Assembly: GCA_964524845.1 (NCBI GenBank)
Contig: CAZGFX010000001.1
Coordinates: forward strand, 163,281-227,280
Direction of reading: 5' to 3'
DNA: 64,000 nucleotides
Source: an uncultured Gammaproteobacteria bacterium
GTDB lineage: Bacteria > Patescibacteriota > Patescibacteriia > CAZGFX01
Shown: positions 43,764-44,057 of the stretch, one piece after another
Numbering within the stretch: the stretch's first letter is position 1
Layout: each line of letters opens with the position of its first letter
The notes under the pieces: model-generated
Told to the model about the DNA's origin: nothing
Database searches by the model: none
The model's input: only the letters and a program-made list of their open reading frames with translations
Program-made: the position numbers and the translations under genes

Positions 43764-44057
43764 ATGAGAAGTTGTTTTCTAAATAACAAATTACTTAATA
43801 TTAGAGAAAATTACAATAGTTTGGTAACCCGCCCCGCAGATGAGCGATAGCGAATCGTGCGGGGAGCTACGAGTGCACAAAAAGTTCTTTCTAAATGATA
43901 AGTTAAGTATTATGTAATAAGACTAAAATATCTTGGTAACCCGCCCCGCAGATGAGCGATAGCGAATCGTGCGGGGAGCCTTGCCCTGAATTTATTTCAG
44001 GGCTTGCCCCGTAACACGCCGAAGGCGGGTGTACGTGGTACGAGTGCATGAAATGGT
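43764..44057 (-). repeat. Repeat units upstream of tRNA-Arg: two copies of a 45-bp GC hairpin element, each fused to a copy of the tRNA 5' end, plus a third 5'-end copy and further GC hairpins (incl. a UUCG tetraloop stem)
   Basis: agctacgagtgca (tRNA nt 1-12) recurs at 43866-43878, and tacgagtgcatga at 44043-44055. ggtaacccgccccgcagatgagcgatagcgaatcgtgcggggagc occurs at 43823-43867 and 43935-43979. AT-rich spacers with TTAGAAAGA lie between units. Confidence 0.75.

Follow-up and report, generated by a model that had tools for sequence, protein, structure and literature searches.

Repeated 5′ fragments of a tRNA-Arg gene with GC-rich hairpins and AT-rich spacers in a Patescibacteriota contig

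In the literature, integration, which leaves them as footprints, is taken to be the usual source of tRNA gene fragments; a general account also names CRISPR (PMC9897764). Repeats made of such fragments are normally read as the 3′-end footprints of integrative elements. On the 3′ side also lies the closest verified analogue of the arrangement described here, the tyrT/tyrV locus of Escherichia coli. When this locus was checked here, three copies were found at a spacing of 178 nt, overlapping the 3′ end of tyrV, and each unit started with the last 19 nt of tRNA-Tyr. We analysed a stretch of 64,000 nt (hereafter, the window) of contig CAZGFX010000001.1 (assembly GCA_964524845.1, forward strand, positions 163,281 to 227,280; GTDB lineage Patescibacteriota). 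On its minus strand, between 44135 and 43660, an intact tRNA-Arg gene with the anticodon GCG is preceded by two partial copies of its own 5′ end, referred to as stubs, each of them followed by a GC-rich hairpin and an AT-rich spacer.

This feature is real and non-random, and its layout adds a new variant to the tRNA-fragment repeats already known. Stubs of the 5′ end, with a GC stem-loop and a leader-like spacer, were observed at three of the five tRNA genes of the window. The layout also appears sporadically at tRNA-Arg in other lineages of the candidate phyla radiation (CPR) and in the Pseudomonadaceae. No description of 5′ stub arrays was found in the literature searched.

The tRNA-Arg(GCG) array and its sister loci

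A preliminary description of this region had proposed that two to three units, each made of a 5′ fragment, a GC hairpin and an AT spacer, stand before the tRNA-Arg gene. The layout was found as proposed and goes far beyond chance, but the number of units is two. They are arranged head to tail with a period of 112–113 nt (112 according to Tandem Repeats Finder). In dinucleotide shuffles, the 12-mer GCACTCGTAGCT and the 33-nt core of the hairpin were each expected 0.00 times.

The proximal stub (stub B) is the exact copy of tRNA nt 1–12 that had been described for each unit. Here nt 13 (C) and the T at position −1 also match the gene, so the direct repeat is 14 nt long. The distal stub (stub A) departs from that description: nt 1–9 are followed by a GC-rich insert of 59 nt and only then by GCT, the remainder of the stub. 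The insert contains two hairpins, one of them with a TTCG loop. The hairpin element, reported previously as 45 bp, turned out to be an identical block of 44 nt with the sequence CCCCGCACGATTCGCTATCGCTCATCTGCGGGGCGGGTTACCAA, found after both stubs (47 nt when GCT is included), and its palindromic core occupies 33 nt. Within the window, the hairpin sequences of this array are confined to their own locus. The motif TTAGAAAGA had been assigned to the spacer of each unit; it is present in the distal spacer (SA), while the proximal spacer (SB) has TTAGAAAAC in its place. The live tRNA-Arg gene has SB as its leader or putative promoter region, and S0, the AT-rich sequence upstream of the first stub, is probably the original leader of that gene. 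The inserts of the array (100–170 nt) hold no open reading frame (ORF). The coordinates are collected in Table 1.

Table 1. Features of the tRNA-Arg(GCG) array and of the sister arrays at tRNA-Leu and tRNA-Ser, in window coordinates
Feature	Position	Strand	Remarks
Terminator-like hairpin and T run, directly 3′ of tRNA-Arg	43660..43680	-	
Intact tRNA-Arg, anticodon GCG, encoded CCA	43687..43763	-	ARAGORN; Rfam tRNA model, 69.6 bits
Proximal AT-rich spacer SB	43764..43820	-	57 nt, GC 0.19; contains TTAGAAAAC
GC hairpin element, copy B	43821..43864	-	44 nt; stem CCCCGCA/TGCGGGG, tail CGGGTTACCAA
Stub B	43865..43876	-	exact tRNA-Arg nt 1–12 (GCACTCGTAGCT)
Distal AT-rich spacer SA	43877..43932	-	56 nt, GC 0.20; contains TTAGAAAGA
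GC hairpin element, copy A	43933..43976	-	44 nt; 100% identical to copy B
GCT	43977..43979	-	nt 10–12 of the split distal stub; 47-nt block of GCT and hairpin identical in both units
GC-rich insert	43980..44038	-	59 nt, GC 0.58; splits stub A between nt 9 and 10
Stub A	44039..44047	-	tRNA-Arg nt 1–9
Leader S0, upstream of the first stub	44048..44106	-	59 nt, AT-rich
Sigma-70-like promoter match, upstream of the whole array	44107..44135	-	TTGACC-17-TATTAT; consensus match only, 1 match versus 1.5 expected in shuffles
tRNA-Leu locus	11944..12364	+	stub nt 1–21, three GC-rich units (~130, 110 and 110 nt), nt 22–30, 43-nt AT spacer, intact gene
tRNA-Ser locus	27140..27361	+	two 110-nt units, 98% identical, before the gene
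tRNA-Ser, 3′ side	27434..27576	+	24-nt direct repeat (nt 73–91 and TAGAT) around a 95-nt insert with two strong hairpins

It was also observed that two distinct hairpins of the Arg array (43933–43942 and 44003–44012, minus strand) have nearly the same 3′ arm, GGCGGGTTAC in one and GGCGTGTTAC in the other, with GTA at the 5′ foot of each. This match is too short for significance.

At tRNA-Leu, the GC-rich units (11965–12314, plus strand) lie within a dead stub of 30 nt instead of at the duplication junction. The second and third units have the same sequence, from which unit 1 departs mainly in one hairpin, through two fully compensated G:C to C:G swaps; unit 1 also has an additional hairpin with a TTCG loop. 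At tRNA-Ser, each unit is made up of a stub of nt 1–12, a hairpin of the form GCCCTG...CAGGGC and a spacer that includes a perfect TATAAT. Tandem Repeats Finder gave a period of 110 at both loci. The hairpins of the Leu and Ser loci have the feet GCC(C)TGAT...CAGG(G)C in common, which were seen in no other hairpin of the window. The two tRNA-Met genes of the window are accompanied by no stub, hairpin or spacer units. Stubs starting from tRNA nt 1 are thus found at Leu, Ser and Arg, three of the five tRNA genes, compared with none of the 177 tRNA genes on 50 viral contigs (Fisher p = 1e-5). The statement that these three tRNAs have a pattern in common was confirmed.

In the 142-nt spacer between tRNA-Leu and tRNA-Met (12453–12594, plus strand), GC-rich hairpins follow one another (fold z = −4.1) up to a terminal T run. 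It seems that the non-coding portions of tRNA transcription units in this AT-rich genome are filled with GC hairpins. In addition, the trinucleotide CAT stands immediately 5′ of the mature end or of the stub at 11941 and 12362 (the two Leu copies), 12592 (Met-1), 27139 (first Ser stub), 43766 (Arg, SB) and 44050 (Arg, S0). This may reflect a context for RNase P or a near-leaderless start of transcription.

The earlier suggestion that TTAGAAAGA is a promoter element shared by these tRNA genes did not hold. The motif was seen twice in the window, compared with 1.4 occurrences expected; at Ser it is on the opposite strand, and neither tRNA-Met has it. The occurrences at Leu and Arg are paralogous copies inside their own arrays, and therefore only two of them are independent. 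The distance of the motif from the tRNA start ranges from −18 to −32. For TTAGAAAG, five occurrences were seen and 4.0 expected, and for TTAGAAA 24 and 26.5, respectively. A scan for sigma-70 promoters detected none in the spacers; the sole match of the region is the one upstream of the whole array (44135–44107). In favour of the suggestion, the hexamer TAGAAA stops 13–14 nt short of the stub or the tRNA, about as far away as the canonical TATAAT boxes, which end at −14 for tRNA-Met(i) and at −16 for tRNA-Ser. When SB was aligned with the Ser spacer, TAGAAA came to lie opposite the TATAAT of Ser; it is without the conserved final T of a −10 box. TAGAAA may be a poor −10 box, but it does not amount to a demonstrable shared element.

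Related loci in other genomes and folding of the hairpins

The pattern GCACTCGTAGCT-N(80–110)-GCACTCGTAGCTCAG was searched for in 185,579 species genomes, in JGI metagenomes and in viral contigs. Eleven loci in the species genomes and nine in the JGI metagenomes matched. In phages, plasmids and viral contigs there was no match to the array, to the junction or to the stub-gap-tRNA pattern, and the hairpin sequences were also absent. The layout at tRNA-Arg was found in six CPR genomes (five Saccharibacteria and one Uhrbacteria) and on two CPR-like metagenome contigs. About twelve loci belong to the Pseudomonadaceae or share the unit sequence of that family.

The dead upstream copies form a series, from full tandem duplicates down to stubs of 12 nt. 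Locus L064 consists of two complete tandem tRNA-Arg genes. Recognisable downstream parts of the tRNA are kept in L063, where a remnant of the T arm survives in the dead copy, and in L066. The latter, from the Uhrbacteria, has nt 1–12, a GC hairpin of 40 nt and then a dead copy of nt 13–42, that is, a discrete hairpin insertion at nt 12/13. In L057 and L077, the stub of nt 1–12 is followed by ~105 nt of GC hairpins that lead directly into the tRNA, with no AT spacer. The hairpin junction is at nt 12/13 in L057, L066 and L077 and in the Arg array of the window. L077 also repeats the stub together with the first hairpin, after which the sequence is unrelated, and its second, older distal unit has a stub with one mismatch; the distal stub of L060 has four. 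In four loci of Saccharibacteria (L058, L059, L065 and L073) the units are homologous to one another and the insertion is in the D loop; L065 has this unit exactly duplicated.

The Pseudomonadaceae type is made of one or two units, each with nt 1–42/44 of tRNA-Arg(CCG), a filler and a copy of the local promoter, followed by the gene; the period is 103–113 nt. In the loci of this type, related contigs included (L060, L062, L067, L069–L072 and L074–L076), the filler at the junction consists of small pieces of tRNA. A recognisable copy of the native TATAAT promoter was observed in each unit of L074 and L061. The arrangement is conserved across several genera (Thiopseudomonas, Denitrificimonas and Pseudomonas). 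To our knowledge, such 5′ partial copies of tRNA-Arg(CCG) have not been described before in the Pseudomonadaceae.

Insertions on the 3′ side were noted in some of these loci. In L065 (1968–2220) and L073 (265–540), both from Saccharibacteria, inserts of ~210–230 nt containing a terminator and hairpins lie 3′ of tRNA-Lys and of tRNA-Arg, and the inserts are flanked by a repeat of at least the last 18 nt of the tRNA. L063, also from the Saccharibacteria, has a tyrosine recombinase gene (5239–6288; Phage_integrase and SAM-like N-terminal domain) ~470 nt 3′ of a tRNA-Arg pair with a 5′ stub. This recombinase may simply be XerC/D.

The folding of the hairpins was compared with that of shuffled sequences. 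The z-scores were −4.3 for the 59-nt insert of the Arg array, −6.4 for the Ser 3′ insert, −3.6 for the Leu unit and −4.9 for the whole Arg leader with the tRNA (424 nt). The isolated stub and hairpin of Arg gave −1.7, which is not exceptional. The loops of the array hairpins are UUCG and of the GAA type. Pairing has been kept through double changes: Leu units 1 and 2 differ by two compensatory pairs, and so do L057 and L077. This indicates either a structural constraint or templated correction within palindromes, as compensatory changes in DNA palindromes can also come from templated correction without selection. When the arrays were compared with Rfam 15, only the tRNAs reached the threshold, and nothing relevant appeared at E values up to 5 in the Arg or Leu arrays.

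Certain explanations of the hairpin itself were tried and rejected. As a decayed 3′ half of the tRNA (T arm, acceptor strand and CCA), the Arg hairpin does present TTCG, CTGC, CG.GT and CCA in this order, but the fit had p = 0.22 against shuffles; the Ser and Leu hairpins of the window and the 59-nt insert likewise fitted no better than shuffles. Sequestration of the stub from the 3′ strand of the tRNA was another candidate. The pairing probability of the stub in Arg unit B was 0.49, the same as in shuffles (0.49); it was below shuffles in L057 and L077, and above them only in L058, L073 and Ser unit 2. On these predicted structures, stub sequestration as a general rule is rejected.

Origin of the arrays

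Our tentative preference, held at a little less than even confidence, is that the Arg array represents relics of repeated partial duplication of the leader and 5′ end, which are transcribed as part of a long structured leader. The array would then be a stack of two dead tRNA-Arg 5′ ends, with the last copy alone forming a complete gene. On two occasions, a segment containing the leader or promoter region and the first 12–13 nt would have been added beside the live gene by local partial duplication, possibly through unequal exchange or template switching, the gene being one with very high transcription. Each event would strand the earlier leader and 5′ stub upstream, with a GC-rich stem-loop placed at the junction, and the older, distal stub would later have been hit by the further hairpin insertion of 59 nt. 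Transcription from the upstream promoter, and possibly also from weak −10-like boxes in the spacers, would read through stubs and hairpins, and RNase P would cut the long structured leader off at the genuine 5′ end. In functional terms, the array is most probably a passenger and not a requirement; tandem promoters might bring some benefit.

Duplication is suggested by the stubs, which are exact copies of the live 5′ end, and by the spacers SA and SB, which are diverged copies of each other and probably also of the native leader. SA and SB are homologous with 39/58 positions identical (z 3.9–4.3). The similarity of S0 to SB is marginal (z 2.4–2.9); it includes an exact match of 11 nt, CTAATATTAAG, and it starts directly downstream of the predicted −10 box (44112–44107). 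Between S0 and SA, z was 0.4–1.1. The proximal stub is intact and the distal one is interrupted; decay of the distal unit is expected on this reading because new copies would arise at the live gene. The mismatched distal stubs of L077 and L060 show a gradient of the same kind. Further points in favour of duplication are the series of dead copies in other genomes, the lack of mobility genes among the 30 proteins scanned, the ordinary chromosomal genes on either side, the confinement of the hairpins to their own locus and the mirror-image arrangement at tyrT/tyrV.

Several observations weigh against this explanation. The block of GCT and hairpin is identical at 47/47 positions between the Arg units, compared with 39/58 for the spacers (Fisher p = 3e-6). 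Simple neutral duplication does not predict such unevenness, for which selection, gene conversion or a recent separate arrival of the hairpin is needed; a duplication of the tyrT type would have left the divergence roughly even along the unit. The marginal similarity of S0 and SB was one of 36 pairs compared, and a z near 2.8 can arise by chance among so many. At the sister loci, the stubs are perfect (12/12 at Ser and 30/30 at Leu), yet no homology was detected between the unit spacer and the sequence upstream of the first stub (z 0.2 for Ser, 0.4–0.9 for Leu). Beyond the 24-nt repeat on the 3′ side of tRNA-Ser the sequences differ, which is the signature of an insertion with direct repeats and not of a tandem duplication. 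Finally, duplication leaves the origin of GC-rich junction sequences unexplained in a genome that, judged by the window, has a GC content of ~36%.

The uneven divergence fits no simple model and keeps a miniature insertion module in play, which we rank second after duplication relics and regard as rather unlikely. Small non-autonomous modules, each with a GC hairpin, a promoter-like AT spacer and a regenerated nt 1–12, would have inserted serially at nt 12/13. They would have done so by site-specific or short-homology recombination with an enzyme encoded elsewhere, bringing their own promoter and rebuilding the 5′ end as islands rebuild the 3′ end, a course to which we give the same limited credence. 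Perfect direct repeats around DNA that has diverged from the native flank or is unrelated to it (Ser, Leu, the Ser 3′ insert and the 3′ inserts of L065 and L073) point in this direction. So do the sharply bounded hairpin block within diverged spacers, the repeated stub and first hairpin of L077 next to unrelated sequence, the constant junction at nt 12/13 and the perfect TATAAT of the Ser unit at the right distance. Hints of kinship across tRNAs come from SB and the Ser spacer (z 2.7–3.0, borderline) and from the common feet of the Leu and Ser hairpins. However, a scan of 30 window proteins yielded no recombinase, transposase (Y1/HUH included), integrase or reverse transcriptase, the inserts contained neither a recombinase nor a transposase, and no terminal inverted repeats were seen on reading the insert ends. 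The direct repeats vary from 12 to ~35 nt across loci, and therefore there is no fixed staggered cut. The hairpins have no dispersed copies in the 64 kb (~60 intergenic regions), each locus having its own hairpin sequence, and the Leu units lie within the stub and not at its junction. Moreover, the unit spacer of the Pseudomonadaceae clearly copies the local promoter, L057 is without any promoter-like spacer, and a tyrosine recombinase is near just one of the seven CPR loci, on the 3′ side. It is accordingly with reserve that we mention the wider proposal that CPR bacteria harbour undescribed, gene-less modules of ~100 nt that target the first 12–30 nt of tRNA genes, which we think improbable as matters stand. 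That such a CPR module would combine a GC hairpin, an outward promoter and a replacement 5′ end, leaving a working gene and a dead stub as the 5′ counterpart of elements that regenerate a 3′ end, is similarly doubtful, and so is the idea that these modules are unusually active in this genome, with three of five tRNAs affected.

The identical hairpins can alternatively be taken as the mark of a selected cis-acting array, be it tandem promoters that raise the output of tRNA-Arg, a structured leader or a stub-hairpin RNA for control of maturation or as a decoy; we consider this clearly unlikely. Identity of 47/47 in the block of hairpin and stub compared with 67% in the spacers, pairing kept by double changes, stable UUCG and GAA-type loops and the folding of the 424-nt leader with the tRNA would all agree with selection, as would the persistence of homologous units across species of Saccharibacteria (L058, L059, L065 and L073) and genera of Pseudomonadaceae. 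Against it stand the lack of an Rfam match, the decay of older stubs by insertion and mismatch, the overall negative result for stub sequestration, the unexceptional fold of the isolated stub and hairpin, the absence of a sigma-70 consensus in the spacers and the possibility of compensation in palindromes without selection. Insertion of palindromes similar to repetitive extragenic palindromic (REP) sequences, of the REPIN/RAYT type, beside GT[AG]G is still less probable. They would survive only in dead stubs, being lethal in a live tRNA. The hairpins do follow GTAG or GTGG (GTAGCT| at Arg, GTGGCC| at Ser, GTA|G at Leu), the Leu units start with GTAG-GCCTGAT, which closely resembles the head of the E. 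coli REP, and hairpins form discrete insertions in otherwise continuous dead copies (nt 12/13 in L066, nt 21/22 at Leu, nt 9/10 in Arg unit A). The GTAG located 5′ of the Arg palindrome is at the same time the tRNA's own nt 8–11, and thus part of the stub. Against this reading, the distance between GT[AG]G and the hairpin is variable (0–9 nt), neither dispersed copies in the intergenic regions nor a Y1/HUH transposase among the proteins scanned was seen, and the duplicated leader is left unexplained. An assembly artefact, lastly, is very improbable. The source is a metagenome-assembled contig of a metagenome-assembled genome, and Logan unitigs break at its repeats. A Logan unitig assembled independently from the same sample stops precisely 30 nt into the Ser repeat, on the repeat boundary; as a graph with k = 31 should break at a real repeat, the Ser repeat, at any rate, also exists in a separate assembly of the reads. 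The Arg units, which differ in their spacers and by the 59-nt insert, are not a collapsed or expanded identical repeat, and the same architecture was found in unrelated assemblies.

Some mobile-element classes were also considered from the sequence and rejected. For integron attC sites, casposons and IS200/IS605 elements, the R′/R′′ boxes misfit, terminal inverted repeats are missing, and repeat length and GTAG offset are variable. An element derived from a miniature inverted-repeat transposable element or an insertion sequence was dismissed with no terminal inverted repeats seen and no target duplication of fixed length (12 to ~35 nt).

Genomic neighbourhood and comparison with known systems

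The genes of the window are ordinary chromosomal ones, among them those for DprA, RelA/SpoT, ParA/ParB, ClpB, a thioredoxin-reductase-like protein and an O-antigen ligase. Adjoining tRNA-Arg (40984–43584, plus strand) is the gene for an 866-aa homologue of the eukaryotic major vault protein (Pfam MVP_shoulder and Vault_3). At least 6,456 homologues had E ≤ 0.001 among 8,000 candidates scored, and the best 120 of them, from many phyla, have 47–53% identity. The nearest are ~52% identical, one of them being from Candidatus Magasanikbacteria. No close relative was found in the species genomes; the homologues at 50–52% occur in unrelated contexts with no tRNA nearby. The source is accordingly an uncultured and probably CPR bacterium that has no close relatives in the collections.

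An intergenic cluster at 55269–55660 (plus strand) contains tandem GCGCGAAGCGCGAGAGACC, which are mini-hairpins with GAA loops, and a further hairpin at 55359–55415. Within the cluster, a direct repeat TTCGTAATTTGTGTTCT..CTCGTAATTT was observed at ~55444 and ~55629, and an inverted repeat, CACCCTGTGAAATAA and TTATTTCACAGGGT, encloses AT-rich sequence right ahead of the gene at 55639. A tandem repeat of 93 nt (48790–49002; 2.3 copies, 84% matches) lies within the ORF at 48502–49152 (minus strand), which has no Pfam match. An ORF of at least 1,506 codons (1–4518, minus strand) runs off the left edge of the window and, being truncated there, is missing from the output of the ORF tool.

If the arrays are relics of duplication, they call for caution in annotation, as stubs can be miscalled as pseudo-tRNAs or att sites, and they would mark the beginning of very highly transcribed genes as a hotspot of mutation. 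If instead they are mobile or under selection, the modules would represent a new way to insert DNA into an essential gene without killing it, and also a new class of structured tRNA leaders.

Tandem promoters are known from the operons of stable RNAs, an example being P1 and P2 of rrn, ~120 bp apart. The arrays resemble these in having AT-rich, promoter-like modules ~110 nt apart before a stable RNA gene. Among these modules, a match to the sigma-70 consensus is confined to the one that precedes the whole array, the spacers being putative promoters. With REP sequences and bacterial interspersed mosaic elements, the arrays share GC-rich imperfect palindromes in transcribed non-coding DNA, local tandem clusters, compensatory pairing and GTAG or GTGG on the 5′ side, which at Arg is also part of the stub. 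Those elements, however, form one family dispersed in tens to hundreds of copies, whereas here each hairpin family keeps to a single tRNA locus, and the window proteins scanned included no RAYT.

Like the attL and attR sites left by tyrosine integrases, the Arg array has an exact partial copy of the tRNA flanking an insert, with the gene intact; at Arg, the stub of 12–13 nt is repeated. In known att scars, the duplication covers the 3′ portion of the tRNA, with the anticodon loop or T loop as its inner limit, and the kb-sized insert has an integrase gene. In the Arg array, the repeated part is nt 1–12/13 of the 5′ end, the inserts are gene-less and of 100–170 nt, and the proteins scanned include no integrase. 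The sole repeat of the window that has the 3′ part expected of an att site is the separate one on the 3′ side of tRNA-Ser (nt 73–91).

The tRNA-Arg(CCG) arrays of the Pseudomonadaceae are similar in that a 5′ part, a filler and a copy of promoter or leader occur once or twice before the gene. They differ from the array of the window in the longer stub (nt 1–42/44), in having no GC stem-loop cap and in a spacer that is clearly a copy of the local promoter. The 178-bp repeats of E. coli tyrT/tyrV (the region with rttR/tpr) have head-to-tail units, an exact terminal piece of the tRNA, an intact gene and, as proposed for Arg, co-transcription in common with the Arg array. They are on the 3′ side, where there is no promoter to regenerate, their units are longer, and they have a uniform divergence (95%) and no GC hairpin at the junction. 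In the Arg array, it is the 5′ end and the leader that are repeated, and the divergence within the unit is strongly uneven; tyrT/tyrV is thus its counterpart on the 3′ side.

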